Counted from the first letter of the whole stretch, positions 3,995 through 42,379 are shown. The stretch is 63,623 nt of DNA, filler included, from Hausera hauseri (GCA_046269625.1; 11 parts of 11 records of this genome joined end to end with filler, not necessarily neighbours in it); one strand, 5' to 3'. The notes: a model not told the origin generated them from the letters alone. Translations and numbers: made by a program.

Positions 3995-4960
3995 TTATTG
4001 ATCTAGCGATAACTGAACATGGATGAACTTATCCGAAGTTCGGCTTTTATATCTGATTGCTTCTGGCTCGTAGACTTCATCGTCGATAATTACCGTTTCG
4101 TCTGCTTGAAATTTTCTTTTTCTACCGCAAGAAGATTTTGGTGTTATTCGCACCGAATCGGATGCCGAGGTCTGACTGATGAATTTATTCCATTTAAGTT
4201 GTTTGTATACCGCTTGGTAACATTGTACTAGAGCGGTGCTTTGGAGTGGCATTCCACGAGTATCGTAGAATTTCCTTGACAACTCCTTGTATGTATCTGA
4301 TGTCAACTGATATTTGCGGATAGCCTCTTTGTGATAAAGAATGTCGCGAACTCCGGCTATCCGCCTGATTGGAAATTTACAGTGGTTAACCACCATTTCA
4401 AGGACATCAGCTCCGATAATTATCTTATCTGTGAAAATTTCCGTGATTTTCCGGTAGAATTCATTCGTGTCCATTTGATTGTTTATACGGGACTCAGCTA
4501 AACCCGTCAGATGGGTGTCGAAATTGTTTATTCTTTGTCTGGGAGAGATGACACTGTAAAATATGATTTGGCCATCCAGCGTTATGACCGAACTTTCAAT
4601 CGGTTGTAATTGATTCCATTGGTCATACGCTAAATTAACTGCATCTATGACCATATCTTCATTAGTAGCCTTGTGTATCCGTCTGTAGGGAATTGTTTTG
4701 TAACGTAGGTAATAGAGTTCTGGGAGATTGAAACATTTACCTTCTTGGAGACTTGGATGGGATGTTTCATGCTTTATGATTTCGAATGCAAGCATGATTC
4801 GATTTGAGAGGGAACGAATTTTCAGCGTATTTTCTTTTATAAATTTAAACTCCAAGGCGGGGGCGTGATCCGGATCCATATTTATAACCTCTCCTTTCAT
4901 TGAGGTTTTGCGATTCGTTGTTTTGATGTGAAAATTGCCAGAAATATTGTAAACATTCAT
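3995..4960 (-). CDS. 321-aa ORF with a degenerate REX4/ISG20-like DEDDh 3'-5' exonuclease domain, at the 3' end of a Gypsy element
   Basis: MVIDAVN..SSVITLDGQIIFYSVISPRQRINNFDTHLTGL..KITEIFTDKIIIGADV..VRDI..YKELSRKF aligns with REX4/ISG20 (ARVSIVN.DG..LYD..I.P...I.DY.T..SG..EI..LLKGK..VGH). Catalytic residues mostly lost. Basic NLS-like GRKRK near the C-terminus. Confidence 0.6.
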   Translation of the reverse strand: MNVYNISGNFHIKTTNRKTSMKGEVINMDPDHAPALEFKFIKENTLKIRSLSNRIMLAFEIIKHETSHPSLQEGKCFNLPELYYLRYKTIPYRRIHKATNEDMVIDAVNLAYDQWNQLQPIESSVITLDGQIIFYSVISPRQRINNFDTHLTGLAESRINNQMDTNEFYRKITEIFTDKIIIGADVLEMVVNHCKFPIRRIAGVRDILYHKEAIRKYQLTSDTYKELSRKFYDTRGMPLQSTALVQCYQAVYKQLKWNKFISQTSASDSVRITPKSSCGRKRKFQADETVIIDDEVYEPEAIRYKSRTSDKFIHVQLSLDQ

Positions 4961-5095
4961 TGAATGGTATCTTTCTGGGAGTATTATTAAGTCCAGGAGG
5001 TAAAACGATGCGGCTTTTGTTAATTGGATTAAGGTTAATGATCTATTACTTATACTATAGCCCTTAAGATTATTTGGGATTTGAGGTGTCTGGGG

Positions 5096-7068
5096 CTAAT
5101 TTAGACTGTATGTGTAGTCGTTATGAACTACGTGATATTGATTGGCTGGGGTAGCGTTGATGAAATGAGTTGTGGCATTATTGAACCAGTGTTTCAATCT
5201 GGTGATTGATTGGATCTGATGAGCGGTTGACGTTGATACTGTAAAAAGAAATATCAATAGGAGGTCATTATAGATATCTAAGTACAACACAACGGTTATC
5301 AAACACACAGTGGTAATCGTTGTAGTTTTATGTTTAGTTGATTTTGGTAGGTAACCTGGTGATATATGGTTATCTGTATTAAAGAGGTTGCATAGACAGC
5401 AATCCCTATACTTAACCGTCAGCTGGGATTGTCGGTTGCTAACGGATTCGTTAGCTCACGCAGGTTACTTCGAACCCAGCTTCGTTTCGCTACCATTATC
5501 ATAACTGCTATCGGAACTATCGAACCAATTAATATTATTTCCAGGCGAGAATATTTATATACCGCTCATGATGGCTTTTTAGTTGCTTTATTTTTAACTG
5601 TATTTACCCCATATGATTGTTCTACTTTGTTACTTTTTTGTGATCGCCGTCATTACTTTTGTGGAAGTTACTTTGTCATTGTCATCTAATATTTGNNNNN
5701 NNNNNNNNNNNNNNNNNNNNNNNNNNNNNNNNNNNNNNNNNNNNNNNNNNNNNNNNNNNNNNNNNNNNNNNNNNNNNNNNNNNNNNNNNNNNNNNGTTCT
5801 ACTTTGTTACTTTTTTGTGATCGCCGTCATTACTTTTGTGGAAGTTACTTTGTCATTGTCATCTAATATTTGTAGAATGACTTTGTATCTTGTGTCAGGA
5901 TCCAAGGCTGCACATGGTACTGCCAGGTCGTCAGGTGTTGATTCCCTTTGCTACTATTGTATCTTGCTTCTTGCAGCTGAATTTGACTTTTGCAAAATCA
6001 AGATCTGGTTTAACGTAAATAATTAATGCGGTAGGGGCTGTTACGATGGTTACGTTATTCCATATAGAACGTTTTTGACGATAATATGAAGCGTAGAGTT
6101 TAATTAGTATAGTCATCTCTTTTCTATCAGCCGAGGACCTCACAAACGGCGTCGTGATCTTTTCTTGTATATCATCGTACTCTTTGACTCTTATATCGTA
6201 TGAACATTGTTGGTCCTTTTCGTTCTAATGGATACCTGAATTTGCCGTTCCTTTTTCGAAACAGAATATAATAAACATTGTATATTTTTCTTCTTGTAAC
6301 CATACAACAAACTCTGCTGATTACCTTTAATCCTGCAGACTCTAACTTCCGGAATTATTGTCTCTATTAGCTTTATTGTTATTCGTCGAGTGTCTTCTAA
6401 TTGTCTCATTGTTATAATTTCGATGCAACTTCTTCCGCTTTTAAATTCAATTGGTCTTGCTATTACCTGGTCAAGTATTATTTCGTCTAATAGGATTTCA
6501 TTCATTTGTTGTCTAGTAGTGATTACTATTGATCTAAAAAATTTTGTTTTCTGGCTTCTATAATAGTCTCCTTGTTTCTTTATGAGTGTAAGATATATAT
6601 AATGGATACCTGAGTCGTGTACCATACATTCTGTATGAGTGGTCCCTGTGTGGAGTAGGCAATTATACTGTCGCTCATTAGGATCTCTAGTCATCATGCC
6701 AAGGTATCATTTGTATCCCCATTGTATATGTTGGGGGGCATTTGTTCTAACATACTCCAAATCATTACTTTCTGACCTTTCTCTGAATATGTTATTTTAT
6801 ACCGTAGAGCTTTCATTAACAGATGTTCTTGTATAGCTATGGCATGTCTTTATTTTGCTCGTTCGATTTCTGAATTAGTCATCTGTCCTATTACTCCAGG
6901 CAATAACAAGATGATAATTAATAATAAACCCTTTAGCAAATGATGAGGTTCATTAGTTAAGTCTACTTTGCTTGCTTTTTCATTAATACTTAGTACTACC
7001 TCTTTCTCGCCTTTCCTTAACTCACTTTCTTTGGAGGCGGGTTTACATCTATTAACGTAGACCTTCAC
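5096..7068 (-). pseudogene. Decayed post-integrase membrane/secreted protein of a Gypsy element (signal peptide, FN3-like segment, hydrophobic segment)
   Basis: Integrase tail VKVYVNRCKP runs in frame into LLKGLLLIIILLLPGVIG (signal-like). CAALDPDTRYKVIL at ~5914-5870 is an FN3-like L-P-x3-Y motif. Hydrophobic TVCLITVVLYL..LLLIFLFTV at ~5310-5235. Several stops and frameshifts. Confidence 0.5.
5696..5795. other. 100-N scaffold gap flanked by a duplicated 77-bp overlap
   Basis: 5619-5695 is repeated identically at 5796-5872. Confidence 0.9.
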
Positions 7069-7908
7069 AGAGGTGTTATTCTTTTTAGTAATAGTTCATA
7101 TAGGTTTTGCAATTTTGCTAAAATCCTTTGTAAATCTTCCATAATAGTTTGCTAAACCTAAAAATTGACGTAATTCTTTGACTGTACCTGGCTTTGGAAA
7201 ATCTCTTATTTTTCCTAACAGCTTGTGTTGCGGTTTTACACCATGTCTATTTATTCTATGCTCGAGGAAATCTACTTCCGTTTGAGCAAATGAACACTTC
7301 TTTTTGTTTATTTTTAGACCCAATATTTCGCATCTATCGAAGAGATCTTGTAGATCCCTTAGATATTGTTGAAAATTTGGTGATGATATTATTACATCAT
7401 CTATATATACCATGGTATGTGGGGCATCTAACAACAGGAGTTCTGTCCCGCTCTGAAATGTTGGCGGTCCATTCTTTAATCCAAATGGCATCCTATTAAA
7501 CTCCCATAGCCCTTCTTCAATTGAGAAGGCTATCTTTGGTTTGTCTTCTTCTTTCACCTCCACTTGCCAGTAAACCTTTTGTAAATCGATGGTTGAGAAT
7601 ATTGTTGATCCTTGTAGTTTATCTAGTATTTTGTCAATTTTTGGTAATGGATGTGTATCCGTTTCCGTTATTTCGTTTAATGCCCTAGAGTCTATACAAA
7701 ATCTCAGTTCCGTTTTTTTTGACCATTACCACTGGCGCTGTCCATGGGGAACAACTTGGTCGAATTATCTTGTTTTCTCTCATTTCTTTTATTATTTTAC
7801 ACGCTTCCTCTTTTTTATCATATGCTAATCGATACGGTCTTTTCTTAATTGGTTTATCTTGTCCATCCTTTAACTTAATGGTATGCTGTATTATTTTCAT
7901 TGTGCCTA
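7069..7908 (-). mobile_element. Ty3/Gypsy reverse transcriptase (family B); RNase H and integrase internally deleted
   Basis: KKRPYRL, SPWTAPVVMV, FNRMPFGLKNGPPTFQ, VYIDDV, LRQFLGLANYY. The RT thumb (AKP.YELL) joins the integrase tail directly near 7090. Confidence 0.9.
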
Positions 7909-10209: not shown

Positions 10210-12300
10210 TTAAAATAATTTGAGCAATTGGACAGATTTGCTCTGAATATTTAAATCAGGTTTCCCTGATTTTATCAGAATCGCCTCAGCCATTGCTCGT
10301 TCTTTATAATTACTAAAACCCTTACTTATGATTTTAAATTCGGATATATTAATTCTGTTGTTACGATTTCTACAATTTGAACCATGATCAAAGAGTGTTT
10401 TACTACCAACACCCCTACAATGATCAGCTACTCTTGTGCGAAGATGACGTGAAGTCTCTCCAATGTATGAGCTGTTGCACCCATGACAATCAAATTTATA
10501 TACAAGGTTAGACTGAACATCGAGTGGTGTGGCAGATTTATTACTAAATAGATCAATGATTCGCTTAGTAGTAAACATAACATTTAAATTGGCTTCTTTA
10601 GGCAATAATTTTAAAATTTTTGACTTTAATTCCTTAGAACCCTCTGAGAACGGCAATTTTAAAATTGATCGATATTTTAAATTTATATGTTTATTGTCTT
10701 TATCGTTTTCTATGCCGAAGGTTTCTGGAATGTTTTCTATTAAACCACCTGGATCGAAGTTATGCAAATCATTTGTGGTTTGATTAGAGTTCGTCAAATT
10801 ATTGTTTTCTGTATTTGTTTTCGGTGAATAGAATTTGTCCAACACTTTTCTAATGGCGTTGTATATTAAATAATCCGGATAACCATTATTGTTTAAAATG
10901 TTTTTTAAATTTTCAAATGCCTTGTTCATACTTTGAAAATCCGAACACAGTCTGTATGTTCTGTACGATAGACAAGACAGAAGATTTCTATTATACTTTC
11001 TGTCAGAGAAACTTGATAAAGTTGTATATAATCCTGTGTCGGTTGGTTTTCGATATATTTGTGTGTTGAATTTATTTGACAACCGCTCAATAAGTATGTC
11101 CAAAAAAGCAATTTTATTCTCCTTTTCCAATTCGCAAGTAAATTTAATATTTTGATGCATATTGTTCAAGAAGTTCAAAAATAATGGTACGTCGTTCGGA
11201 GAATTAAAAATCATGAATATGTCATCCACGTAGCGTTTGTATATCCGTGGTTTGTATTCCAGATCGCGGGGAATTTGCTTTTCGAAGTGGTCTAAAAATA
11301 TAGATGCCAAAGTTGGGGCTAATGGTGAGCCCATCGCAACTCCATCTATTTGCTCGAACCATTTGTCATCAAACAGAAATTTTACGTTCTTAGTGCAAAA
11401 GATTAAGAGTTCCTTTAGTGCATTCGACGATATGTCTTTGGTAAAATTCGAAGCATTCCAAAGCTCCACACACAAATCAATAGTGGAATCTAGTGGAACG
11501 TTTGTAAAAAGACTCTCAATGTCAAATGACACCATAATCTCATTAGGGCCTTGGCATGTTTGGTTGATTATAAAATCCGCAAACTCAAACGAATCTTTAC
11601 ATTTATTTTCATTATTAATCAACCTTTTTAGAAAATGGTCTAACAATTTTGCTATCTTGTATTGGGCAGTATTCATTAAAGACAAGACCAGTCTCATAGA
11701 CATTCCACTTTTATGAACTTTTGGGAGTCCATAAAGTTTAGGTGGTTGACTGCCACTGAACTATAAATCCTTTACTATATCAGATGTTATTTGACCAGAC
11801 TGAAATAAGGATTTTAGTAAGGAATGTAATCTTTTATCCTCTTTCACTGGTATAGGTTCAGCATTTCGACGCAATTTTAATTCTCGAAATTTGTCATCAC
11901 TAATGATCTTAGTTAATTTATTTATGTAATTAGACTTATTCATGACGACGAGACTATTACCCTTGTCGAAGTTTCATATACAAATTTCACGGTTGCTCTT
12001 AAGTTTATTTAGTACGTTAAATTCGTCTAATTTTAGCATCTTGCTTTTCTTTATATAACTATTTATAATGTTAAGCCATTTGCCCTTGTCCTCATAAAAA
12101 TTAATATTCCTTTAGCATAGTTTTTCATAAAAAGTTTCAAAAATACTTTTAATTAAAATGTCATTAAATCTCTATTGAATACCATGTCTTGGACCAAATT
12201 TTAGTAAATCGGTTTCAGAATGGGTTAATGCGCAATTTGAAATATTTATTATAGTATTTCGTACTTTAAATTCTAATACACTGTAACAATTTTATAGCTT
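10210..12300 (-). mobile_element. Penelope-like retroelement: RT + GIY-YIG endonuclease (10210-11703 open; 5' part decayed)
   Basis: DKGN.LVVM, PKLYGLPKVHK, VSFDIESLFTNVP, DGVAMGSPLAP, YKRYVDDIF, YRKPTDTGLY; C-terminal NLVYKFDCHGCNSSYIGETSRHLRTRVADH and EAILIK..KPDLN. Confidence 0.95.
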
Positions 12301-12354: not shown

Positions 12355-13980
12355 CCATTTTCTGAATGTTCATATTTAAAGGTTAATAGCTTTGGAAACA
12401 TTGTAAATATTGCGATGCAAATAGGGTCATTCGATTCGCATGAAAGAGTGTACTACAGGGTTACAATTCCGTTTAAATAGAATTTATGCAAGCAAAGTTA
12501 CAGAGTGCCGAAGTTGAGTATGACAAAACGTGTTTATTTCATTTTCTGAATGTTCATGTTTAAAGGTTAATAACCTTGGAAACTTTGTGAACATTTCGGG
12601 GCAAATGGCGTCATTTGATTCGCAGGAATGTGCTTATCACAGTCGCGCAATTCAGTTGAAACAGAATTTATACGTGCAAAGTTACAGAGTGGCGCATTTG
12701 AGTATGACAAATGTGTTTATTTCACTTTCTGAATGTTCATGTTTAAAGGTTAATAAACTTGAATACTTTGCGAATATGGCGATGCAAATGGCGTCATTTG
12801 ACTCGAATAAAATGTTCATCACAGTCGCACAATTCAGTTTAAATACAATTTGTATATGCAAAGTGACATATTTCCGCATTTGAGTATGACAAATGTGTTT
12901 ATTTCATTTTCTGTATATTCTTGTTCAAAGGTTAATAACCTTGGATAATTTCCGAAGATAGCGATGTAAATGGCGTCATTCGATTCATATGAATGTGCTT
13001 ATCGCACCCGCACAATTCAGTTTAAATAGAATTTATACAAGCAAAGTTACAGAGTGCCGCATTTGAGTATGACAAAAAGGGTATATTTCATTTTCTGAAT
13101 GTTCAAGTTTAAAGGTTAATAACCTTGGATAATTTGCGATCATTTCGATTCAAAAGGCCTCATTCGATTTTAATGAAAGTGCTTATCACACGCGCGCAAT
13201 TCAGTTTAAATAGAATTTACATATGCAAAGTTCCAGAGTGCCGCATTTGAGTATGCCAAAACGTGTTTATTTCATTTTCTGAATTTTCATGTTTAAAGGT
13301 TAATAAACTTGAATACTTTGAGAATATGGCGATGGAAATGGTGTCCTTCGATTCGTATAGAAAGGTTTATCACACTGGCACAATTCAGTTTAAATAGAAT
13401 TTATACAAGCAAAGTTACAGTGTGCCGCATTTGGGTATGGCAAAATGTGTTTTTTACGTCTTCTGAATTTTTAGATTTAAAGTTTAATAGCTTTGGAAAC
13501 TTTGTGAGTATTTCGATGGTTATGGCGCCATTCCATTCGCACGAAAGTTTTTATCAAACTCGCACAATTCAGCTTAATTAGAATTTATACAAGAAAGTTA
13601 CAGAGTACCGCATTTGAGTGCGGCACAACGTGTTTATTTCATTTTTTGAATGTACATGCTTTAAGCTCCATAACTTTGGATCCATTGTAAATATTTCGAT
13701 GCGAATAGAGCTGTTCGATTCGGAGTAAGGGGCTTATTTGAGGCTTAGAATTCCGATTAAATTAGATTTGTACCAGCAAAGTTCCAGAGTGCCGCATTTG
13801 ACTATGAGAAAAAGTGTTTATTTCGTTTTCTGAATGTACATGTTTTAAGCTCCATAACTTTGGATCCATTGTGAATATTTCGATATCCATAGTATGCTTC
13901 GATTCGGATGAAAGAGCTTATTTGAGTCTTTAAATTTTTTTTAAATTGGATTTGTACCAGCACAATTTCAGGTTGCCTCA
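12355..13980. repeat. Tandem satellite, ~184-bp unit, 9 copies
   Basis: Anchor (c/t)tg of ttttctgaatgttca recurs at 12362, 12546, 12729, 12911, 13095, 13279, 13463, 13646 and 13830. Confidence 0.95.
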
Positions 13981-14019
13981 TGCATTTTCTGACTTCGACC
14001 CACAAATCGATTAATTATG

Positions 14020-14848
14020 CTGCAATTGACTTCATACTTAAATTTGCCCAGCACTTTTTATTGGTAATTGAATAGTTTGGATGAATGGTAGGATAACCGC
14101 TAGTATCCACAGCATTTGCCATTGCTTTAAATTCTTCAAAAATATCCTATGTTTGAATTCTATACATTAACGAATCAGTGTCCATGTAGAGTAATTGCAA
14201 TCGGTCCAGACCAAATTTCGGTAACATAACGTCATAGTCAAATTCATACACGAGGATTTTATTTAAATCCAGAATGCACATCCCCACATAGATCGGTCTG
14301 TTGAATTCCAATCGGGTTTTCGCCAAATGAATGCCCACGAACCGTGGGTGAAAATTTTAAGGTTTAGAAAATTGCTTCGGGCAATAGGTTTTGGCTCATT
14401 TTCACTCAATCACCAATTCGATATTCTGCCCATTTCGAAAGTTTTCCATAGTTTTTCCAAATACCGCGTTATTGTACAGCTTAAATTAATCCTCTTCAAA
14501 CGCCTTTGTAGCTCTTGTTCTTAGATCCGTATTGAATTGTATATGAGACTGTAACCAAGGATACTGGCTGAATTGAATTGTCCGATGGATTTTCCGAATT
14601 TTAAGTCCGTGTCTGATATAGCCTGCTGCAGGTACTGATAATACACTACGTACCTTCTTCTATTACCCAAGTGTGGTGTTAATTTCTTCACTTTTCCATT
14701 TATACAATTTGGTGGTTTAATCGTTTCCGGTAGAAATGGTAGCTGATCATGCTCCGCATGTAGAGTCTCGGGGTAGTCAACATCTACTTCGAATATGTAC
14801 CCTGTGGATGCTGTGGGACTTATACTGAGAATATCACTATCCATGTTA
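14020..14848 (-). mobile_element. Polinton/Maverick-type protein-primed DNA polymerase B fragment (pseudogene)
   Basis: GYIFEVDVDYPETLH..HDQLPFLPE, KLYNNAVFGKTMEN, NRPIYVGMCILDL, LLYMDTDSL. Confidence 0.9.
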
Positions 14849-14948: not shown

Positions 14949-16253
14949 TCCGTTCTACGATTTTAGTACGCTTAGTATGACAATTTACGGCAACTAATCG
15001 AAATATCGCGATACATATTATAAGCACAAGAGTTGACAGACTTACGATCATTACTATGGATAATGTAGTCAACTTTTTGGATTTGGTAATCATTGTCTCA
15101 GTAGTGATTTCTTGTCTCGTATTTTTGTTTGCATGTGGTGCTATTTGTATTTCTCCTATTGTTTGTATTGTGAACGTCTGACTCTGAGCATCTTTTGCAT
15201 GCATTTGGATTATGTATTCTGCCTTGGGTACTAATGAGTTACATTCAGTTTGATATGAACCCCTCCATAAAGTTGTTTTCACACTTTTGTACATCGTACA
15301 ACAATGTATTTCGACATTATAGTTGAGCTTCTCTTCTACCGAAAATATAATTTTGCGCTGTTGCGCCCGAAATTTTACAGGAATTTTAGGTAATTTCTTT
15401 TCGTTCGTCTTGGTCGTAGTAAGCATAGTAGTAATGCTTACAGGAATGGTCCGTCTTGTCGTCGTTGTTTCAACCGAAATTATCCAGATTTTACTGTCTG
15501 GATAATATCTTCCTAAATAAATGCTCGATTTATTTATTTGAGTTCCATAGAGGTCGAAATGAATCCTATATTCATGACCTGCTGCAATTTTACAACAGAT
15601 TCTATGATCTGTGATTTTTAGACTACAATATTTAGGAATTAGACTTGACTCTTTTAATTTAGTAAATTGGACTAAGATCTCTTGTTTACTGGGCAATCTC
15701 CATTTCATGTCTCTTTGGATACATTTGTCGTTCTTATTAGCTGAAATATGGACTATATTTTCATTTAATACCCATTTGATGGGGTCCATCGATTGTACTA
15801 TATCATCGAGTTTCGTTATGTTAGCCCGTTCTTTAGATTGTATGACTAATTTTACTTGTGGTTTTATCACTCCTTGTGTGCGTTCGTAGTTTTTGTAGTA
15901 CATTCGTATAGTAAAGTTTTAAGTGTCTCCATAATTTATGACACAACATTTTTCTTGAGCTCATATGGAAAATCTCAATGGGTCATTACTCGTTTATTCG
16001 TGTTCCATAGAACTACTTGATATTTCACTGGTTCTCTGACGGGTCCGTCCGTCCTAAATAATACACAGTTTCGTCTTAAATCTATGCCTTGGACTTTCAA
16101 ACGATCTAAAGTGTTTAAATCGTTATTTTTTATTCTTATTAATTCATTTTTCATCCATTTATTTAGTTGTTGAATTAATCCTCCTTGAGCATTGGCTTTG
16201 TGAATATACGAAACTATGAAGGATAGTGCTAAGATTATCTGTAAGTAAGACAT
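14949..16253 (-). CDS. Post-integrase type-I membrane protein (signal peptide, Thr-rich linker, FN3-like domain, TM); decayed near 15900-15980
   Basis: MSYLQIILALSFIVSYIHKANA is in frame with the integrase. TTTTRRTIPVSITTMLTTTKT; CNSLVPKAEYIIQMHA; TM LSIVMIVSLSTLVLIICIAIF followed by a basic tail. Confidence 0.7.
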
Positions 16254-19200
16254 GGGTCTAGTAACTATAGACCAGTTTTTAACTTTTCTACTTTTCGGCT
16301 TCTGGTTTATTTCTGTATCCTTGTTACGTAGTTGGTATCGTTTCTCTGGTCTTATTTCTGTCTTTACCACTCGCTGTATTGACACGACTTCCTCTTTTCC
16401 ATTTTTATTAATATATACTGTGGTGGACGTTATCCTGACAAACTCGTAAGGTCCTCTTCCCGTACGTGTGAGCTTTAACGATGCGCCTTTCTTAGCTAAG
16501 GGGTAATGCAGATAAACCCAATCTCCGTTTCTTAAATCGTGTGGTTTCGTATTTTTGTCGTATTGCTTCTTAAATCCTTCTTGATATTCTAAGGATAGCG
16601 TCTTGTCTACTTCCCAACACTTTTGTAATCTGACTTGTAGAACTTCTACAAAATTTAGTTCTAGCTCTTTAATGTTTGCTCCATACGGAATCATTCCTAA
16701 GTCCGTGGATAACGCTGCTTCTCGTCCGTACATAATGAAGAACGGTGTAAAACCTGTCGCGGGGTGTGGTGTTGTATTGATGGCAAATTGTGCGCCTTCT
16801 ATAAATTCATCCGAATTTTTTTTATCTTTCGCGACTACATTTGACAATATTCGTATTACAGTAGCATTCATGCGCTCAACCATTCTATTACATTGGGAAT
16901 GGTAAGCTATTGTAGTTAACCTCTCGATTTCGAATATTTTTGTAATTTTGTCAAACAATTCACTGGTGAAATTTCTTCCTCGATCAGTTAATATTTGATT
17001 GGGCGGACCGTATATACAAATAATTTTTCTTACTACGGCTTCAGCTAATGTTTCTGCTTTCTGATCGTATAACTCTATTAACTCTACGAAGTGAGTTAAA
17101 TGATCGACGTATGTTAATATATATTTGTTATTTTTATGCGTCGTGGGCAGTGGTCCTACGATATCCATTGACATGGCCTGCATTGGCCTGTCCGGTACAG
17201 CTATCGGTTTCAATTCTGCTATATGATTTCGCATTTTCCTTTGCTTAGTTGCGCATACTTCGCAAGCGCTTACCTAATTTTTAACATCAATATATATACT
17301 AGGTCAATAGTATTTGTTTAACGCTCTATCTAACGTCTTCTTCCAAGACCAGTGCCCTGCTAAATACGAATCGTGTTCGGCCACTAAAACTTCGGTTCGC
17401 AGAATTTTGGGTATAACTACTAATTTTCTTCCTTTTCGTTCATAATACAAAACTTTTTCACTGTCCTTGTTCTCGGAGACACAATATTTATGTCCATGTC
17501 GTTGCAAATGTTTCCTCAACTGGTGTCATTTTGGCATTACGTCCGCTTCGGCATACTCAATGATTTGTTGGATGACTCGATCCTTCTTCTGTTCATATGA
17601 AATCTTAATTGCTCCGTCTGACGCTAAAGTTCGTTGTCTGTCAATTAATTCTTCAAGCGGATTTTTCCTCATTGTCATGATTGCACTTGTCTTTGTCTTC
17701 AACCTGGACAATGCATCTGCATCCACATGTTTTGCACCAGGTTTATATTGGAACTCGAAATTGCATCTTGATATTTCTTCAATCCATCTATTCAATCTAC
17801 ACGTATGGTTGTTTACTCGTCCTTTTAAAGTTGTAACTGCCTTATGATCGGTAACTATTATTATCTTTTGTCCACATACGTAAACGTTAAAATGCCTTAA
17901 GGCTTCTTTTACTGCTAACGTTTCTAACTCTGTCACCGAGTAATTTTTCTATGCTTTTTTCAGGGAGCCTCCTCCGTAAGCGATTGAATGTTTTAATTCT
18001 TCGTCTTCACGTTTCTGTGCCAACTCGTATCCGATACCTTCTTTACTTGCGTCTGTTTTAATAATAAACGGTAGGTTCAAATCAGGATATCTCAGTACTG
18101 GTCCGCTAGTTAATATCTTCATTTCATCGAATGCCTTTTGCTCAACGTCGGTCCATTTCCATTTTATTCCCTTTTTTAATAATCTGTATAATGGTGCGTT
18201 GATTTTTGAGTTATCTGGTACATAGGTAGCATAATATCCGCATAGACCTAACCAATGTCTCAGTTCTTTTTGGTTTTGTGGTTCCATACAGTCCGAAATT
18301 TTGTTCAATAATGACTTATCTAGTTTCGATCCTCCTTTGCCAACTATATGACCAAGGTAGGATACGGCATTTTAAGCCCATCCGCATTTCTTTGGGTTTA
18401 GTTTCAAACCGGCATGTTCTAATCTCATTAGTGTCCTCAATATCCTTCAGATGCTCTTTTTCGTCTTTTCATGCAATCAATACGTCATCTAAGTACGCAA
18501 ATGCATGTTCAAGTCCCATTAGCATCTTATTCGTCATTCTGGTGAATATGGCTGGTCCAGTGGTAATTCCAAACGGCATAACGTTAAATTCGTATACGCT
18601 ATCATAAGTTTTAAACGCAGTTTTATAACGATCCTCATCTTCAATCTCTACTTGCCAATATCCGTATTGTAAATCCACAGTATTAAACCATTTTACTCCT
18701 GAGAGTCTATCTAAAGCTTCTTTTACAGATGGTAGAGGAAAACAATCCTTCATCATAAGAGTATTCAACGCTCTATAATCGATACAAAATCAATGTTTTG
18801 TGGTTCCTTTCTTTTTGACCATTAGAATAGGTGAGTACCGTGATCTAAAACTTGGTCGAATTATATCGGCCTTTAACAAACGTTCTACCTCCTTGGTTAT
18901 CTGTGGTCGTAAATAATGCGGTGGCGGATATTATTTTGGCATTTTTTTCCTCCAGATCAATTTCATCATTAGAACTAAGCGTTACTTAAGAGGTATAGTT
19001 AATTTTAATGTCTTTGCTCGGCCAATGTCTTCTTCGTCTTTCGCAATAATTGATTTATATCGACATAATAATTCGTAAAACTGGTAATAAGCTTTTGGTG
19101 GAAATTTGGTGTCACCGTGCAGTGGAAATTCTGCGTACTTATATGGTTTATCTTCAACCGTTATTGCTGATACTTTGTAGGTATTCCCTATAGTAGTGTT

Positions 19201-19466
19201 AGCATATAACTTTACTGGAGTTTGAGCATTGTTCACTATTCTTACAGGTATTCGACTTAATGCTACTCGGGTCAATATATTGCACAGTATTATATTAGGG
19301 TTTAGCGTTTCTCTTGGCTCGAAATATACTGGTAAATCGTTGTCTTGACAGATTTGTGCAAATATCAACAATTCCGTTCTAAACGGAATGTTTTCATCTA
19401 CTGGAATCCAGACTTCTCCGGATTCTCTTTCTTTATTAACTTTAGTTCCTTTTATCGGTCCGAGCT
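16254..19466 (-). mobile_element. Ty3/Gypsy pol (family A): post-protease spacer, RT, RNase H, integrase
   Basis: RT DLQYGYWQ, MPFG, AYLDDV; RNase H IKTDAS..GIG, ELETLAV, VTDHKA, HVDADALSR; integrase H.DS..GH..CEVC, MDIVGP, LTDRGRNF, VERMN, GPY. Multiple stops. Confidence 0.95.
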
Positions 19467-31384: not shown

Positions 31385-33480
31385 GTATCGTGAAATTTCT
31401 TCGATCCACCGGTTTAACCTACATGTCGGGTTATTTGCCCGTCCTTTTAACGTTGTAACAGTTTGTGATCGGTAACTATAATAATTTTCTGTCCGTAAAC
31501 GTAGACATTAAAATGTCTTAAAGCTTCTTTTATGGCTAGTGTCTCTAGTTCAGTAACTGATTAGTTTTTCTCCGCTTTCTTAAGCGATCGCCGTCCATGC
31601 GTAATTGGGTGTTCCAACTATTTATCTTCCTGTTTCTGAGCCAATTCGTAACCAATTCCCTCTTTACTGGCATCTGTTTTAATTATAAATGGTAAATTAA
31701 AATCGAGATATATTAGCACTGGTTCACTTGTTAGAATTTTATTTATTTAATCGAACGCTTCCTGTTCAATATCAGTCCATTTTCATTTGATACCTTTTTT
31801 AACAGACGATATAATGGTGCATTTATTTTCCAATTATCCGGCACATAAGTGACATAATATCCACATAAGCCTAACCAATGTCTTAATTCTTTGTGAATCT
31901 CGGGTTCCATACAATCCGATATTTTGTTTAATAAAGATTTATCTGATTCTGACCCTCCTTCTCCAACTATATGTCCGAGATATGATACAGAATTTTGTGC
32001 CAATTTACATTTCTTTGGGTTCTGATTTTAATCCTGCCTGTTCCAACCGCATAAGAGTGTCTTCGATGTCCTTTAGGTGTTCCTCTCCTATCCTTGATGC
32101 TATCATTACATTGCCTAAGTATGCGAATGCATGATCGAGTCCCATTAGCATTTTATTCATCATTCTGGTGAAGATAGCTGGGCCGGTAGTTATACAGAAC
32201 GGCATAACGTAAAATTCGTAAACTCCATTGTGTGTTTTAAATGCTGTTTTATAACGATCATCTTCTTCAATTTCTACTTGCCAATATCCTGATTGTAGTT
32301 CCAGTGCGGTAAACCACTTTGCTCCTGATAATCGGTCTAGAGATTCTTTTACTGATGGTAGTGGAAATGAGTCTTTTATTATCAGCGTGTTCAGGGATCT
32401 GTAATCTATACATAAGCGATGTTTTGTGGTATCCTTTTCTTGAACATGAGTATTGGCATGTAGCAAGACCGATAGCTTGGTCGTATTATATCAGCCTTTA
32501 ACATACGTTCTACCTCTTTGGTTATTTCGGGCCTTAATGAAAGGGGCGTTGGGTACCATTTAGGCATCTTTTGCTCTTCCAAGTCAATTTTGTCATTGGA
32601 GCCAGGTTTCTTTTTTAGTGGAATCGTTAGTCTTAACGTTTTTGCTCTGCCTATATCTTCCTCATTTTGGGCAATAATCCACTTATATTTACATAATAAT
32701 TCGTAAAATTGACAATATGCTTCGGGTGAAAACTTTGTTTCTACATGAGGTGGAAACTCGGCATATTTTAAGATTTTTCTTTGATCGTTATTGCCGATAC
32801 CTTATAAGTATGACCCAAGATAGTATTAGCATACAATTTTACAGAAGTGGGCGTATTATTTACTAATCTGACTGGTACTCTTCCTGTCACTACTCTTGTC
32901 AAAATGTTACTAAGCATGGTATTTAGATTAATTTCGTCTTGGGGTTCAAAATATACTAGTTGGTCGTCGTCTTCGCGGATTTGAGCATAAATTAATATTT
33001 CGGTTCTAGGCGGAATATTTTCGTCGACGGGGATCTATACTTCTCCTAGCTGTCTTTCTTTCATTGTTTTAATTCCTTTCGCTGGTCCCAATTCAAGTAG
33101 CTTTTCAGTCTTCAAGTTTATTGCGATATTGTGTAATTGTTTCAGTATATCGCAACCTAACACTACATCATCAGTTAATTGATCCATTACGGCAAACTCG
33201 TGTCCAAGTATTTGGCCCATTAACTGAGCTAAGGGACTCCATTTAAATTTCAGTTTAGATTCTTGCCCGAAAGCTCCTATGCTGCCTGGGTCTGACGATG
33301 ATACTGGCTGTAGTTGTTTTCGTAATGTCGGCGGTATTAATTCTAACTTGATGAATGATTTCTCTGATCCGGTGTCGATTAAGGCATAGACTTCCCAATC
33401 TTCAATAGTAACTTTTGTGAAGGGTCTCCCTTCCATAACTGTTCTATAACAATTTGACACGTCTGCTGTTCGTTTAATTG
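31385..33480 (-). mobile_element. Ty3/Gypsy pol (family A): protease, spacer, RT, RNase H (pseudogene)
   Basis: GRPFTKV..YALIDTGSEKSFI..VVLGCDIL; RLCIDYRSLN, ELQSGYWQ, AYLGNV (mutated YxDD); IKTDAS, ELETLA. Very similar to 17526-19466. Confidence 0.95.
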
Positions 33481-34081
33481 TAGAAATCTTATGTCCGTTT
33501 ATCGTTATTTCTGGTAATGAAATCATGTTCTCGGTCGGCTGTTTCAGTTCTTCGTTAGGGTATAAGTCGTTCATTGCTACGCTACCTGCATTGCTTCTAA
33601 TTAATGGTTGTTGAATTATTTGGTTTTGAAGCAATTTCATTCCTTGTGTTCCCCAAACTGTTGATTTTGTCTCTATATTACGATCTATTCTCGGCCAGTA
33701 CAATATCCTGTGGTCACCTTCCGCTCGTCGTTGATTAGTGATCTGCATTTTCTTTAATACTCCGTATTGTTTTGTTCCTTCATAAGGGTCCTCATAGCTA
33801 AAAGGTCTTCGACAGAAATCCGATTTGTATGACACCATAGATGTTCTATCGCAATCGTCGTATAATGGAGCCGTTGGCGGCATGATGGGCAAAAGTGCCT
33901 TAATTACTGAATACATTTTATGTCTATTTTGTTTGAGGATTGCTTCTCCTCCCTTAGGCTCGTCATCATCGGAGTCATTTCTTCGTGTTGTTAATTTCTT
34001 AGCTTTGTGTTTCAATAGAAACGTGGGTCTTGCTCATTGTTTATAATTATGATAGCCGACGTGGCGTTCAACGTCATTTTT
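33481..34081 (-). CDS. Linker between glycoprotein and protease, in frame with both; contains PTAP and LYPNEEL
   Basis: Part of ORF 33035-34015. Only two in-frame stops (TAG at ~34083, TGA at ~34035) separate it from the glycoprotein tail. Confidence 0.6.
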
Positions 34082-35930
34082 CTATCGGTTTTCGTCGTAT
34101 GCTTTAAGCATTTTGCCGAACGATGTGATGATTGCGGTTAAGATCTTGCAGGAAAATCCTGTTAGCGTAAAGATTTCGTACCCGTTTATAACCGCTTGGA
34201 TTACCGCTTTTACTAGTTGTACCAAGAAACAGATTGCTAAAAATCCAGATGCGGCTTGTCCAAAAATGAAAAATCGTCCCCATATTTTGTAGAATATTTC
34301 TGTGGTTACCCGTTGGTAATGGTTTGCACCAAGTAATGATTCGAATTTAGCCTAATATCGAGTATCGTCAACTACTGATGCCATAGCTCGATTTAATTCG
34401 TGTGTTCTCTGTCGTGGGAAAGCAAGGAATTGTCGAAAAGCTTCGATTTCTTTAGGCCTGTAAATACCTTTTTGAGATGTATCCTGAAACTTATCATCAA
34501 TAATTCCTTTTGCTAAATTAGTTCAAGTTAGTTTTTAGGAATGATAGTAACGCCTTTATTAGGTAGGCTAACCCAATCTGTTTCGCTACGCCTAAACATT
34601 GGTTCACCCAGACTTGCTTTGCAATCCTTTACGATGGTTGGTTGCGTTGCATTATCAAGCAACACTCTAGTGAGAGGCATGGATAGATGTGGAGTGTTTT
34701 GGTAGATTACAGGGAGCTCTTGTGTGCATTGTTTTTCTTCGACATTAATTGGTACGTCTCTTTTCTCTCACTCGTAGGTCAGTAGGACCTCGCGAGTAAC
34801 TCGCCGAAGATTCCTTCTCTCATGGGAATGATCGGTGAAGCTAACTCAGGGTTCGCATAAATAAGATCTAATTATGTCCTCATAATTTCCGTATTTAATT
34901 TGCAGTCGTTGGTTATCATTTTGTAATATAGTTCGGCTATTACGACTTGTCCTTTTTAATAAAAATAATCGTCTCGGTTTTTTAGATAATCTTCGATTCT
35001 AATGTCTTGCGTTTTTAAGTTGTAGGTTTTCGAGCTTATCTCCGCTTCTGCGACGAAGAACTGTTGGTAGTTAGTGGTGAACATTATTACTTCGCAACGT
35101 GAAGTCATTTCCCTTTTTATGAATTTCAATCCATACTGATCAGAGATTAATATCGTAAGTGTATAATGTTTTGATACGTCTTCATGTGCTCTTAAATTGA
35201 TGTCGGATTTGTCTACGTATCGTTTTCCGGTAGTTTCAGGTCCTTAGTCTTAATGAAATTACTGCCTTTTGCAGCGAGCGGTTCCCATATGACGACAGAA
35301 CTTCTGAAAGCACACGTTTCGTCTTGTATGTGACATTTTGGTTCTTGGTATAGAGCTTAGTAACGCAATGGAACATTACCTTCTGTACTCGCATTTCTGA
35401 TTCGTAAAAGTCTACTACTACTACAGTTGCTTCCAGACCTTTCCAGTGTCGTATTCTGCTCCGCTACAATGTCCGTTGTGCATTTCCAGCCTTCCAACTA
35501 CTATTTTATATGCTATGATTACCTTTCCGGGCTGCATTTCTAATTCGATGCTATCACATTTTAGTCTTCCCGTCTCTCTGGCCTGTTTACAATGTTGCAT
35601 TTTTAAATTCATGGGAATTGGGGGGGGGGAAGGTCGTTGGTTTGATTATAGAGGAATTTCCGTGCATTAGTCCACAGTGAAAGATACTATGAGATCGTCT
35701 CAGCATACATTCCATGCCATCCAAAGATATCAACTCTTGTTGTTGGTATAGGAAGTAGCTCTCTTTCTTTGTTTCCAATTTATGTTGTCTGGCATCCTCA
35801 CATGATTCTAAGTCCATTAGGGAATATTTCTGTCCAAGTTTAAATCTATCGCAATCGTAAACGGTAACGACGCCCATGTGTTTTATCAACATCATTATGG
35901 TGAGTAAACTGATTAACCAATTAAATTCAT
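34082..35930 (-). pseudogene. Chuvirus(Jingchuvirales)-like fusion glycoprotein (env), copy A
   Basis: Signal WLISLLTIMMLIKHMGV; VYDC..KYSLMDLESC..YFLYQ..ECMLRRSHSIFHCG; GHCSGAEY...VW; GIYRPKEIEAFRQFLAFP; TM region KIWGRFFIFGQAASGFLAI..KAVIQAVINGYEIF..GFSCKILTAI. Confidence 0.8.
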
Positions 35931-36249
35931 TCTTTCGGTTGTTATTATCCATTGTCGTCAAGTTCCGTATGACATCTCCTAGTCCTTTATTAGTATTCCT
36001 CTTGTCTTCTTCCTTGTCAAACAATTTTGGCCAATTTACTTCACATGGTAGCTTCCTAGATGCTTTTCGCGCCAAACTTGTAGTTCGATTTAGTTCATTT
36101 TCTTGATTTGGAATTGTCTTAATTGCCAAGAACAATAATACTTTTCTTAACTCTTCGGTGGTATTTTCCACCATAATTTTCTCTTCTATTGCGTCGTCCG
36201 TTAGGCTGTTTTTAGACAGCTTGATACGCGAATTTCTCACTGTCCTAGC

Positions 36250-38226
36250 TGCGTTAAATATCGCCTTTTTTATCGTCTAATGTATCCCCTCGAAGGCTTG
36301 AATAATTTACGATACGTATTAAATTCTTCATTAACTCGTTTAACTCTTCATTGTTGGTGCTAAAGGTAGGAATCTACATTTGCCTTAGTTCTCTAAATAA
36401 TTCTCTGTTTTATTTGATTTCTTCTCGGGCTTTCCTAGGTCTTCCGACCGGGCGTTTAGGCTTTGGAAAATTGGTTATCATCCCGCTTAGTGGTACTAGA
36501 TTTTTGTCATATTGTTTCTTGTTTTCATCTGTCTGTAAATACTCGAAATACATTGCAGCGTCTTGTACTCTCATGATTTGCCCTACTCATTGTTCCGTTT
36601 TGGCCTTCCGCGTGGCCTCTTCTTTTGTCTGTTCGTTGGCTATTATTACTACTATCCGATTTGTTTCATCGGGAATAATTCCGACGTCTATTAACTGTTC
36701 TAAATCATCGAGTATTCTTCCTCTAAAGTAAAATCTGTAATTTAGCTCATTTGTGCCGCCATTGTTTAGTAACCATTCTCTTACGTTTTTTACATAGGAA
36801 TATGTAGTTAACTCACATTCTTTTTTTCCCATCCACTCAGATGATATTATTATTTTCATTGTTACCTCCGGTTTATCCTTCAAGATTTGCGCATACTTCT
36901 TTATTAAAAGTTTCGGCACCGTGTTGTAAATTATGTTTTCACTGGATAATTTAGTCAAAGTCGGAATGAGTTTTCTGAGCTTATTTTCAGTCATATTCAC
37001 ATTAATTGATTCCATCAAGTCCTTTTGGGTTAACGCTGAGTCTAGGAGCATCTCCACATTGAATTTCCTGTTCTGCGGATACATTTCTATTTCATCTAGG
37101 TGTACTGGCGTTACCGGGTTTTCAGCCGTTATTTCTTCTAAGTAAGCATCCCATTCTAGTTCATTCCCAATATCTAGGAGTCCATAGTCTACTAGAGCTG
37201 TGTTTGTTTTTTGCACAATTCCTCGAATTTTTTTTAGTCTTGGTTGCATTTCTTTCATCTGCGTAGTTCGGAAACCTATTCCGTTTCCACAAGCATATTG
37301 AATCTTTTTCAGTAGTTGGCCTAATTCATTAGAATTGATGAATCCTTTATGGTGATAATCAGTTAGTTCAATAATTACGTCGCTTTGCCGTCTGTATACG
37401 AATTCTTGCTTATTTTTGATTTCTGATTCGGTAAAAGCGTATTTATTTCGGTAACCTTTAAACTCTTGCTATTTCATCTAGCCTTATTTCTCTTTATTTC
37501 ATTCGGATGCACGTTTCTTCTACTTGGTGTAATTTAGGCATTAACTGCCTCATCTTTTCATCATTAATCTCCGCCATTTCTACCAATACGTATGCTAGCC
37601 CATACAGTTCATTTATAATTTTTGAGTGGGAATCCATTGCGTCTAGCAATTTCTTTATAAACTTAGATTTTTCGACACTAAGACTTTGGTTGTTTCTTAT
37701 TTTTGTCAATTCGGTATGGTAATTCTGATCCGTACCGGCCATCCATTCTCGTGGTTTATGCAAGAATCTTACTGCTTCTATTAGGGCTGCTCTATATTCT
37801 TGGCAAATATCTAAGGTTTCGATATCCTGGATTAAAATCACGTCGATAGGTTTCTCTGTTAAATGTTGGATTTCTTCTAGTCGGATGCTTCTTAACCTTG
37901 AGTAAAAATTGCAAGTCATATTTTGCTTTTCTGTAAAGTTCGTTTCTTCGATTATTTTATAGATCTCTTCCAATGTTGTCATTTCTTGTTTCTTCGTCAT
38001 AAAATTTAATTGTCGTAATGATTCGAATCGTGTCCGGATGTCTATTTTTGCCCGTATGGTGTTTAAGTTATGTGCAACTTTTTCTAGTTGCTTTTTTACA
38101 GATGGTTCGCTTTCCGAAAATTCTTCCTTACTGTCTTCTATTAACTTACTTAATCTCGTTATTAATTCGGACCATTCCGACTGTTGGTTGGCAATTATCG
38201 GTTTTGCTAATATTGCCTTGTCTAAC
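36250..38226 (-). pseudogene. Decayed 5' coding region of the family A element: helical ORF, ubiquitin-like domain (36859-36640), AT-hook-like motif (36431-36463)
   Basis: NVREWLLNNGGTNELNYRFYFRGRILDDLEQLIDVGI aligns without gaps to ubiquitin [48 protein letters not shown] lies in the same frame after one TGA. Confidence 0.6.
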
Positions 38227-38619: not shown

Positions 38620-41600
38620 AGTCAACACCTGGAGTTTTTTTCATAATTTGATGGCATTTAAGAATTGTAATATTCTCGCTATAATTCATGAAGAAAGTGA
38701 CTTTCCCAAAGCTACTGATGATTCGTTACTTCAGAAGCTTATCAGTTCTTGTTCCAAACATCCCCGATTCATAAAAGCAAAAGCTGATATTTCCAAAGTA
38801 TTACTTTCGTTTGGTTTCTCGTAGAATACTGTTCATGTTTAGATGTTTGGTATTCAACATTTTGCTGGAACTGTCCATTACAAAATTCAAGGTTTCCTGG
38901 AGAAAAATCGTGATGCATTCAATGCTGATCTTATTGATCTCATTCAAACTTCGAAAAACGAATTTTTGCAAACTCTTTTTGATAAAGACTTTTCTGTAGT
39001 ACGTTTTTTTAATGTATAAATTGTTCATGGTTATAACTCTCATTCGAATGGTGGGACGTTCTACGTGGTAATCTAAAACAACATTTCGATTTAGGGATTT
39101 GAAACGCGTAAACGATCTCCAACTCTTGCCATTCAGTTCAAAAGATCTCTCGATTCTCTTCTAACTATTTTAAAGACACGGCAGCCTTTCTTCATCAGAT
39201 GTATAAAACCGAATGAATTCAAACGTAAACAAGATTTTGATCGTTCTTTATGTCTTCGACAACTTCGATATTCTGGTATGATGGAAACCATTCGAATTCG
39301 TAAAGCCGGATATCCGATTCGGCACCAATTTTGCGACTTTATCGACCGTTATCGAATACTTATTCCTGGTGTTCCAATTAGCATTCAATGCAAAGACAGC
39401 CGAGAAACTACGAAACAGATTTGTATGAAAATTCTAGATCCGAAAGGTTATCAGGTGGGAAAAACGAAATTATTCCTCAAAGATTCTACGGATATTTATC
39501 TGGAAGAATGTCGTGACAAAATGTTAACAAATTCTGTCATAACTATTCAGAAAACGTGGAGAAGATTTTTCCATAGACGTAGGTTTCTTCGGCTTCGACG
39601 AGCAGCAACAGTAATTCAAAAGAACATTCGGATGTATTTGGCAAGAAGAAAATACCGCAAGGTAATCAAATTACTATGAAATATGGCTAATAAAAATCAT
39701 AGCTAAAAAAAGGAATATCTTTGTTCCAAGCAACTTACCGAGCTCGAATTGCAAGCCGAAAGTTGAAAGATTTGAAGGGTTTCATTAAAGGAGTTCAAAG
39801 ATATTGCAGAGGATTTCTTTCTCGACTGAGATTAAAGAAAAAGCGTAAAGGCATTGTCATAATTCAAACTGCTGTTCGAAAGTATTTGGCTATGAAGAGA
39901 TATTCAAAGTTGAAGGATGAGGTAATTTTTGAAAATATACGTGCTTTTTTCGTTTATTTTTATATTTGAAATGTGACTCACAAGGGAACTACCACTGTTT
40001 TAACAAACGCCACCAATTTGCACAACTTCTCTTCGCTGTTACTCATGCTATTAAAATACAAAAGATATTTTAAAACACCTACGTATAGTTGTTCAGAGCA
40101 CTCACGTATTTCTTCACACCAGCCAATCATTATCCAGCAAATGACTTTTCACACAAGAAATGTACTTTATGCAGCGTTAGTACTATTCGATACAAGCCTT
40201 AACTAGTCGAATAATTAGACGGATACTAATTTGTTCGCCAGAACATCGGACAAACATATTTGTTAAGTCCTTCTCTGTGTTAGGGAGGAAATTGAACAAG
40301 TGCACAATGACGTAAAATAGGAAAACTTTTCTTACAAAATTTATTTTCATATCATTAAACATCATAAACTTTAGTACTCGTATAAGTCATTTTCATGGAA
40401 TAATTTGACAATATATGAGACCTATTTTGTCTAAAATTTCATTTTTTTTCTGGTTAAAATTTGTATAACTAATAAAACATAATTTCTCGCATTTCTCAAA
40501 ATTATTGCAATATAGAAACAGAAGCTAATTGAAGCCTCTGAACTTCGTAAAGAAGAAGAACTGTTGTTAAAGAAACAAATGGATGAAGAAAAAGCAAAAC
40601 GAGAAGCAGAAATTCGTCATCAAGTAAAATCTTATTTTCAAGAAATATTCCTTCATAATTCCCTATTTCTTTATAGAAAAGACTCGACGAATTAAAAGAC
40701 ATTTCTACTGCTGAATCATTGCAGAAACAGCAAGAGAGCAGTGATAAAAAAAGACAAATAGCAGAAGCCGAAAAACGACGCTTTCGACCCGTGGATGAAT
40801 CAGAAATGGTGAGAACAATTGTGCAATTAATAATGCATAGGATTTATATTAAAAATTTACGTCGTGCTCCATTATGTTTCTCAATACGCCCAAATAATAT
40901 CTTACTCATTGTGTTGTATTTAGTTGGATGAAATATTTGGAGATTTTGAAGACCACGGTGGAAATAAAAACACATCACTTTCCAATGGGCCGATAGCGTT
41001 CGAAGATTTAGAACAATCGCGAACGAATGCCCTGAACAGTGTTGATAAACTGTTCGTCTCCAATATTCCTGACTATTTGAACTCTGTTCTGGACGAAGAT
41101 GTATCGGAATTCAAATTTTCAAAATTCGCTGCAATGTACTTTCAAAACGACCAGGACGCGGAATTCTCTAGAAGACCGCTAAAAAGATCGTTGTTGTATT
41201 ATCCAAATCCGAATGACCAAATGGCAGCACTTGCAGTGTGGATCGTTATATTACGGTTTATGAAAGACCTACCGGAACCGATGATAAGTAAAACGTATTC
41301 GTCGAAAAAAGACAACGTTCCAATGATGACAAAAATCTATCAATCCTTGGGTAGAAAATTCAATCCACAAGATATCCAATTGGCCGCAGAAGAAGCTGAA
41401 CGAATGGTGCCATTTTATAACTCAGTTCAATATTTAACCGAATATTTCAGGGTCAAACTCCGTACGAAAATAACACACTGCGGTGCAACAAAAAGAACAT
41501 TGTTTCACTAACTTTGAAAAAGAAATCGAAGTTTACCGAAGAGGTCGTTAGTCAGTTGAGAAGTCCTGACAATGCAGATATGCATGGTGATGGAAAAACT

Positions 41601-42379
41601 ATCCTCGACGAAAGTCCAATCACAAATCTGGAAAAACTACACTTTATTATTGGAAACGGAATTTTGAGACCGCAGTTGAGAGATGAAATCTATTGCCAGA
41701 TCTGCAAACAGATGACCAATAACCCCCGTGCCGAAAGCGTTAGTCGAGGTCTGATTCTACTAAATTTATGTATCGGATGCTTTGCACCGACGGAAAAGTT
41801 TGTCCGGACGTTGCGAAATTTTATTCAAAGCAACTTTGCGAATTATTCGACATTTGTCGTAAAAAGACTTCAGAGAACGTTTTCTAATGGAACGAGAAAC
41901 CAGCCGCCAAGTTGGCTTGAATTGAAGGCGATTAAGAACAAAGAACCAATCATTTTGGCTGTAACATGTATGAATGGAAATACGGAAACAATATTTGCCG
42001 ATTCAGCATCAACGGCAAATGAGTTGTGTTCGGTGTTATCGCAAAAGATTAATTTGAAGGATAATTTTGGCTTTTCGCTTTTTGTTGCAATTTTGGATAA
42101 GGTTCGAGTTAAATGATATTATGAAAAATCATCTTTTGATTTTTTTACTAGGTTTCTTCACTCGGCAGTGGGAATGATCATGTAATGGATGCTATAAGCC
42201 AGTGCGAACAGTTCGCAAAAGAGAAGGGTATTCCTGAATCGAAAGCTCAATGGCGGCTTTTCTTTCGGAAAGAAATCTTTACTCCATGGCATAATCCAAA
42301 TGATGATTCATTGGCTACAGATTTAATTTACCATCAGGTTGTGAGAGGGATAAAGTTTGGGGAATACAGATGTGATACG
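38620..42379 (+). CDS. MYO7A: Myosin VIIa (partial, multi-exon): motor C-half, IQ motifs, coiled coil, MyTH4, FERM start
   Basis: [110 protein letters not shown]. Introns include 38798-38842, 39662-39702, 40624-40676, 41407-41450 and 42102-42151. Confidence 0.93.

Follow-up and report, generated by a model that had tools for sequence, protein, structure and literature searches.

The window analysed here, a 63,623-nt stretch of DNA from Hausera hauseri (GCA_046269625.1), consists by our count of 12 short contigs with spacers of 100 N between them, and neighbouring contigs are taken as unlinked unless they overlap. Four places in the window carry parts of Ty3/gypsy retroelements, A1, A2 and B2, which are listed in Table 1, and B1 (5796–7908). 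The contig considered in most detail, A1, is 4.5 kb long and both of its ends fall inside coding region. Its Pol domains follow the order reverse transcriptase (RT), RNase H, integrase, with the protease preceding the RT in the sister copy A2, and the best PDB match of the integrase frame is Ty3 Gag-Pol (residues 9–313). The A1 element has the Pol order of Ty3/gypsy elements (Metaviridae) and a gypsy-type integrase with a GPY/F tail.

Table 1. Features of A1 and of the related contigs, with positions counted from the first base of the window
Feature	Position	Strand	Remarks
A1 contig, decayed Ty3/gypsy element	14949–19466	-	Internal part, from protease–RT linker to membrane protein
RT piece	18472–18789	-	PF00078, E 3e-19
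RNase H	17769–18155	-	Pfam match (PF17917/PF17919); interrupted by one stop
Integrase core (rve)	16899–17192	-	PF00665, E 9e-14
GPY motif, integrase tail	16446–16454	-
Basic linker	16254–16330	-	No stop in integrase frame; K/R at 6 of the 20 positions ahead of the hydrophobic core
Predicted signal segment	16188–16253	-	A-x-A at end; conserved in P0016
Ectodomain repeat 1	15889–16100	-	Broken in the A1 copy
Ectodomain repeat 2	15472–15768	-	Four cysteines, all retained in P0016
Thr/Ser-rich linker	15406–15471	-	12 of 22 residues (55%)
Predicted fibronectin type III (FN3) domain	15133–15405	-
Transmembrane helix	14986–15063	-	26 residues
Start of cytosolic tail	14950–14985	-	Conserved Cys, basic cluster; cut by contig end
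A2, sister copy	31385–38226	-	Gag-like region, fusion glycoprotein G (PF24664, E 3e-7), protease, RT, RNase H
Second lineage, tail	5494–7095	-	Integrase-tail-like end, hydrophobic segment (6930), FN3-like motif by eye (5810–5950), helix (5538)
B2, G-bearing copy of second lineage	42883–46949	+	PF24664, protease, RT

An open frame from the integrase into a membrane protein

The integrase frame of A1 is free of stops over 432 codons (17273–15978, minus strand). From the GPY motif (16454) onwards 159 codons remain open, for which the probability by chance is approximately 4e-6 given the base composition. The frame enters a hydrophobic segment, the Met of which lies at 16253 in A1, that has a Kyte-Doolittle value of 2.0 over 15 residues, while the final membrane helix reaches 3.1. 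No other stretch of this kind occurs in any of the three frames on the coding strand of A1, and shuffling the strand gave 0.017 per 100 codons. The original prediction that the integrase frame continues without a stop into a signal peptide is borne out as to the open frame and a signal-like segment, the term "signal peptide" being based on the hydropathy profile, on the terminal A-x-A and on P0016, a relative described below.

Between 15977 and 15919 the A1 copy is broken by stop codons and one frame change, after which a second frame of 323 codons (15918–14950) reaches the end of the contig, where the C-terminal end of the membrane protein is lost. Beyond this junction a Thr-rich stalk, an FN3-like segment and a transmembrane helix had been predicted, and all three are found; however the predicted succession omits approximately 150 residues between the break and the Thr-rich part. 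Two cysteine-bearing repeats, which had been overlooked, lie between the signal segment and the Thr-rich linker.

Elsewhere in the window there are tandemly repeated units of about 184 bases (12356–13939), a Penelope-like frame that encodes RT and GIY-YIG domains (10210–11760, minus strand) and, on a different contig from A1, a decayed coding sequence (14000–14848, minus strand) that by eye resembles a Polinton-type DNA polymerase B; a Pfam search with one frame of the latter gave no match. Pieces of a MyTH4-type myosin, either a retrocopy or an ordinary gene, lie beside decayed zinc-finger-like repeats (39095–42116, plus strand), and a single contig (26882–30347) carries an insulinase-like frame (PF22456) together with a frame containing an MSV199 domain. 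An AT-rich kinase frame of 1,363 codons (53661–58894, plus strand), which overlaps a frame of 384 codons, may stem from another organism.

Relatives and ectodomain of the membrane protein

Searching 1.84 billion proteins in full gave three matches, P0016 (E 3e-48), P0017 (E 4e-28) and P0018. The last of these was set aside as a bacterial Ig-repeat protein of 23% identity, a compositional or generic Ig-like match. P0016 and P0017 each correspond to one ENA entry. The former is an unbroken type I membrane protein of 479 residues that spans both pieces of A1, matching the piece before the break (signal segment and first domain) with an E-value of 1e-9 and the frame after it at 32% over 322 columns, while the 189 residues of P0017 match the last half of the A1 frame at 43%. 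Seven of nine cysteines and one N-glycosylation site are common to the A1 protein and P0016, and the cysteine directly after the helix is retained in A1, P0016 and P0017. The only hydrophobic peaks of P0016 are at residues 14 and 429. Judged from sequence, the layout of the A1 protein is that of a type I membrane protein, in which a putative N-terminal signal is followed by a single membrane helix with a basic flank on the cytosolic side. The tails of P0016 and P0017 end in YxRI-T, of which the YxRI agrees with the YxxPhi sorting signal, and one of the two also fits TxYxxI.

No relative of either the 323-residue frame or the region of the integrase tail came up in word-based protein searches, and PDB sequence searches with the 323-residue frame and with a 4-row profile gave nothing significant. 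Neither the integrase frame nor P0016 had a match in scans of viral contigs, and the four loci returned by a metagenome scan were discarded since all consist of one 18-residue match that we attribute to chance. Sequencing run X1 gave 7,819 contig pieces on A1, mostly of 80–95% identity, and because these cover 30 of 30 bins of A1 the gene is one of a family with many copies. The break can be ascribed to decay of the A1 copy, since X1 contigs differ there and P0016 is unbroken. We therefore regard it as almost certain that a membrane protein following the integrase is real.

Folding the whole 323-residue frame gave a pLDDT of 38. The third domain of the ectodomain folded alone gives seven strands with a pLDDT of 57, and FN3 domains rank at the top of a Foldseek search with this model, at a best E-value of 1.2e-3 (none reaching 0.001) and TM-scores of 0.5–0.6. 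VIA-align places the model on fibronectin with a Z of 7.1 and an rmsd of 2.9 over 78 aligned residues, with no match at a Z of 8. The neighbours of the domain in a language-model search are also FN3 (0.88), which we treat as a lead only. The Pfam fn3 profile does not match the A1 domain, and P0017, at 13 bits, stays below its cut-off of 25. The third domain is thus likely to be FN3 on the strength of a low-confidence model, and the predicted FN3-like segment is upheld with moderate confidence, FN3 structures leading both structure searches. The top Z values among the fold matches are tied and favour no particular host receptor, and the best viral fold match has an E-value of 0.016. A Thr-rich neck separates this domain from the helix.

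Repeat 1 is homologous to repeat 2, with an hhalign probability of 87% (E 4e-6) and a p of 0.001 by shuffling, and both close on a similar C-x-L-x-x-G-x-x-Y pattern. Homology of these repeats to the FN3 domain was not detected, with an hhalign probability below 1% and one of five shuffle tests at p 0.03. A C-type-lectin-like reading of repeat 2 had been prompted by a WRLP motif and was dropped as the motif is not retained in P0016.

Relationship to Pol and to the fusion glycoprotein

The open frame could mean that the membrane protein is made as part of Pol, or it could be incidental to a separate third gene that has its own start or is expressed from a spliced RNA. In the region 15860–16480 there are 217 differences between X1 contigs and the window, 40 of which were listed, and 38 of these fall within the open frame. 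In the integrase frame, 18 of the 38 listed differences are silent, 20 change the residue and none creates a stop, against an expected silent share of 0.28 (p 0.007). Neither of the remaining frames shows a silent excess; they have 11 and 8 silent differences, with 2 stops. In the integrase frame the excess is weak when only the part beyond the Met is counted (10 of 22 listed differences, p 0.08). One X1 contig bridges 16202–16391 without a gap.

For a separate gene it can be said that the A1 copy has an ATG at the start of the signal segment and, further upstream, two AG sites weakly resembling splice acceptors, and that P0016 has been called as a stand-alone protein beginning at its own Met, with an unrelated lead of 10 residues and more Mets just ahead of the hydrophobic core. 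Against this, the ATG is not conserved, and A1 has no further Met from residue 200 up to this ATG. P0016 has Ile at the same position, and the third base differs in 22 X1 contigs (851 of 1,493 in depth), although the depth is locally high and some of these may be other repeats. Since the ATG is lost in P0016 and in many copies, an internal signal of a Pol polyprotein is favoured. None of the 38 listed variants closes the linker, and in the second lineage B1 also continues in frame from an integrase-tail-like end into a hydrophobic segment. None of the 15 long Pols retrieved with the integrase has such a tail, all of them being distant (28–45%). On balance synthesis as part of Pol is the probable arrangement, and a separate gene is rather unlikely.

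The relation of this protein to the fusion glycoprotein G has to be assembled from different contigs. A1 begins after the protease and A2 ends in RNase H, and the two overlap by 1.7 kb of RT–RNase H. Because this overlap is only 74% identical in DNA, A1 and A2 represent sister subfamilies rather than one copy. The Pol nearest to that of A1 in the window is that of the G-bearing contig, in agreement with the original prediction, and the Pol motif on which the kinship had been proposed occurs in both translations (76% over 55 residues). Joining A2 and A1 gives 9,656 nt without LTRs, which makes the predicted size of over 10 kb plausible provided that the two layouts are linked. In A2 the anchor of G shares its frame with pol, from which two stops separate it (34033–34243, minus strand); this reflects a genuine stop or else a single polyprotein that has decayed.

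A second lineage is represented by B1 and B2. B1 overlaps the contig at 1–5695 by 77 identical bases, and its Pol is 45% identical to that of B2 at the protein level. In an RT tree of 189 columns that includes 15 database Pols, all distant, and an A2 row with an out-of-frame stretch, A1 pairs with A2 (support 100) and B1 with B2 (99). The two lineages are approximately 40% identical in RT, and each pairs a G-bearing with a tail-bearing contig. The tail proteins of A1 and B1 are laid out alike but have no detectable homology (best profile E 0.22), and one of 18 comparisons between their tail frames fell below p 0.05, in an unrelated region. At about 7080 (minus strand) RNase H and the greater part of the integrase have been deleted from B1, so that the end of its RT is followed directly by integrase-tail-like sequence. 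Downstream of the second-lineage membrane protein there is a 366-codon frame (3998–5095, minus strand), possibly an accessory gene, which by eye resembles a DEDDh/REX4-type exonuclease and for which Pfam and PDB sequence searches were empty. Between the two lies a 119-codon frame with a hydrophobic stretch (5099–5455, minus strand) that has no family match.

That two surface proteins flank pol had been predicted for the element; a type I protein does follow the integrase in frame, but no contig of the window carries both G and the gene after the integrase, and no X1 piece spans A1, hence X1 gives no linkage of G to the tail. This, together with the 26% DNA divergence between the Pols of A1 and A2, would suit elements of different subfamilies in which the tail protein replaces G. 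The recurrence of the pairing in two lineages so far apart in RT argues against replacement. In addition, no LTR was called within 3 kb of the ORFs in any of the six Schmidtea GAG-ENV-POL elements in the first supplement of PMC13524379, which fits extra sequence after pol, although other explanations exist. We consider replacement unlikely. The recurrent pairing is suggestive, not proof, that G and the tail are in the same element, and overall it seems quite likely that they are.

Comparison with known elements and possible function

Errantiviruses with the order GAG-ENV-POL and an ENV of HSV/gB type have been described in Platyhelminthes, Nematoda and Bryozoa by Chary and Hayashi (PMC13524379), who call entry by gB-type proteins unexplained given that herpes gB needs partner glycoproteins. 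The elements described here are alike in having a Ty3/gypsy Pol and, in sister copy A2, a class III glycoprotein between gag and pol; A1 stops short of the interval in which the published elements carry theirs. By eye, the G pieces of B2 (most clearly) and A2 (loosely) resemble Schmidtea rows of the second supplement of that paper, which makes a triclad flatworm the likely host. The available text of the paper describes three ORFs with only a chromodomain after the integrase, its main text does not contain the words "fibronectin" or "fused", and other ORF arrangements were outside the search of its authors. The Burro / GYPSM1 elements of planarians, according to the available text of PMC6431247, exceed 30 kb and encode one polyprotein with env in frame between gag and pol and many extra domains (BIR, MATH, BCL2, ankyrin), and that text mentions no membrane protein after the integrase. 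By comparison, no BIR, MATH, BCL2 or ankyrin domain was detected in the main frames of A2, the start of gag is off the contig, and A2 and A1 joined come to approximately 9.7 kb.

Membrane proteins after pol are known in other elements, namely ORF3 of LTR elements in bdelloid rotifers (PMC5408684) and sORF2 of the Drosophila MDG1 group (PMC11952523). Like the A1 protein these are non-canonical, and the portions of the two papers available to us present them as proposed or shown to aid spread from cell to cell. They are, however, separate short ORFs, no longer than about 220 residues, and take the place of env, whereas the A1-type protein has 480 residues, is receptor-like, lies in the integrase frame and is probably additional to a fusogen. 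A GAG-ENV-POL order was thus already published for flatworms, while an FN3 membrane protein following the integrase appears to be new, none of the titles and abstract openings listed in searches of the openly accessible literature, Repbase notes and bioRxiv supplements aside, describing one.

If the protein is made with Pol, the hydrophobic segment after the integrase would act as an internal signal that sends the rest of the chain into the ER, signal peptidase would cut after A-x-A, and the element's own protease would release the integrase from the membrane stub. The topology is read by the positive-inside and A-x-A rules. The two cysteine-bearing repeats, the Thr-rich linker, the third domain, the anchor and the short tail would then form one protein, as they do in P0016. 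With G encoded between gag and pol of the same element, the product may be a membrane-spanning polyprotein in which an internal signal brings G into the ER, where it becomes anchored, Pol stays cytosolic and a second internal signal follows the integrase. Many viral envelope proteins are palmitoylated and sorted through adaptors, which a tail cysteine and a YxRI would fit, and the conserved cysteine and terminal YxRI may direct the protein to the budding membrane. There the ectodomain, probably glycosylated, might bind the surface of a neighbour or of a target cell and thereby help G to bring about fusion with the right cell.

Entry by two proteins is familiar from herpesviruses, in which gD acts with gB, and from paramyxoviruses, in which an attachment protein acts with F. 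The likeness to these systems is functional only, a binder beside a fusogen; homology was not detected, the best viral match being that given above. Granted a real protein, fusion to Pol and residence in the same element as G, we would give an attachment or adhesion role about an even chance. The reading as a whole, of a single-pass FN3 membrane protein fused to Pol that serves as the cell-adhesion or attachment partner of the upstream G, falls somewhat short of that.

Only slightly less likely than attachment is a function within the producing cell rather than on the particle. As a receptor mimic or decoy the protein could block reinfection or dampen signalling, or it could steer budding through its tail. 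Its layout is like that of cytokine and adhesion receptors, and both relatives end in the motif that fits YxxPhi, one of them fitting TxYxxI; on the other hand no specific host receptor leads the fold matches, and synthesis with Pol would tie the protein to particle production. We rate such a role as possible. That the sequence is a passively carried fragment of a captured host gene is highly improbable, for while FN3 membrane proteins are common among host genes, there is no host-like relative among the three matches in 1.84 billion proteins, related copies fill every bin of A1 in run X1, and the cysteines and layout are retained at 32% identity.

Returning to attachment, a more general and more tentative proposal is that the flatworm gag-env-pol elements are virus-like agents with two glycoproteins, in which one membrane-spanning polyprotein supplies a gB-like fusogen before Pol and an FN3-type receptor-binding protein after the integrase, in at least two deep lineages. 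Such an arrangement might, with similar reserve, be compared to the division of labour between herpes gB and gD as its retroelement counterpart. If this is true, annotation pipelines that halt at the integrase overlook a gene. If the protein is fused to Pol, the integrase would be made tethered to a membrane signal, which poses an unusual problem of processing. A conserved second surface protein would be a concrete candidate for the partner of gB-type envelopes, whose means of entry is described as unexplained in the available text of PMC13524379.
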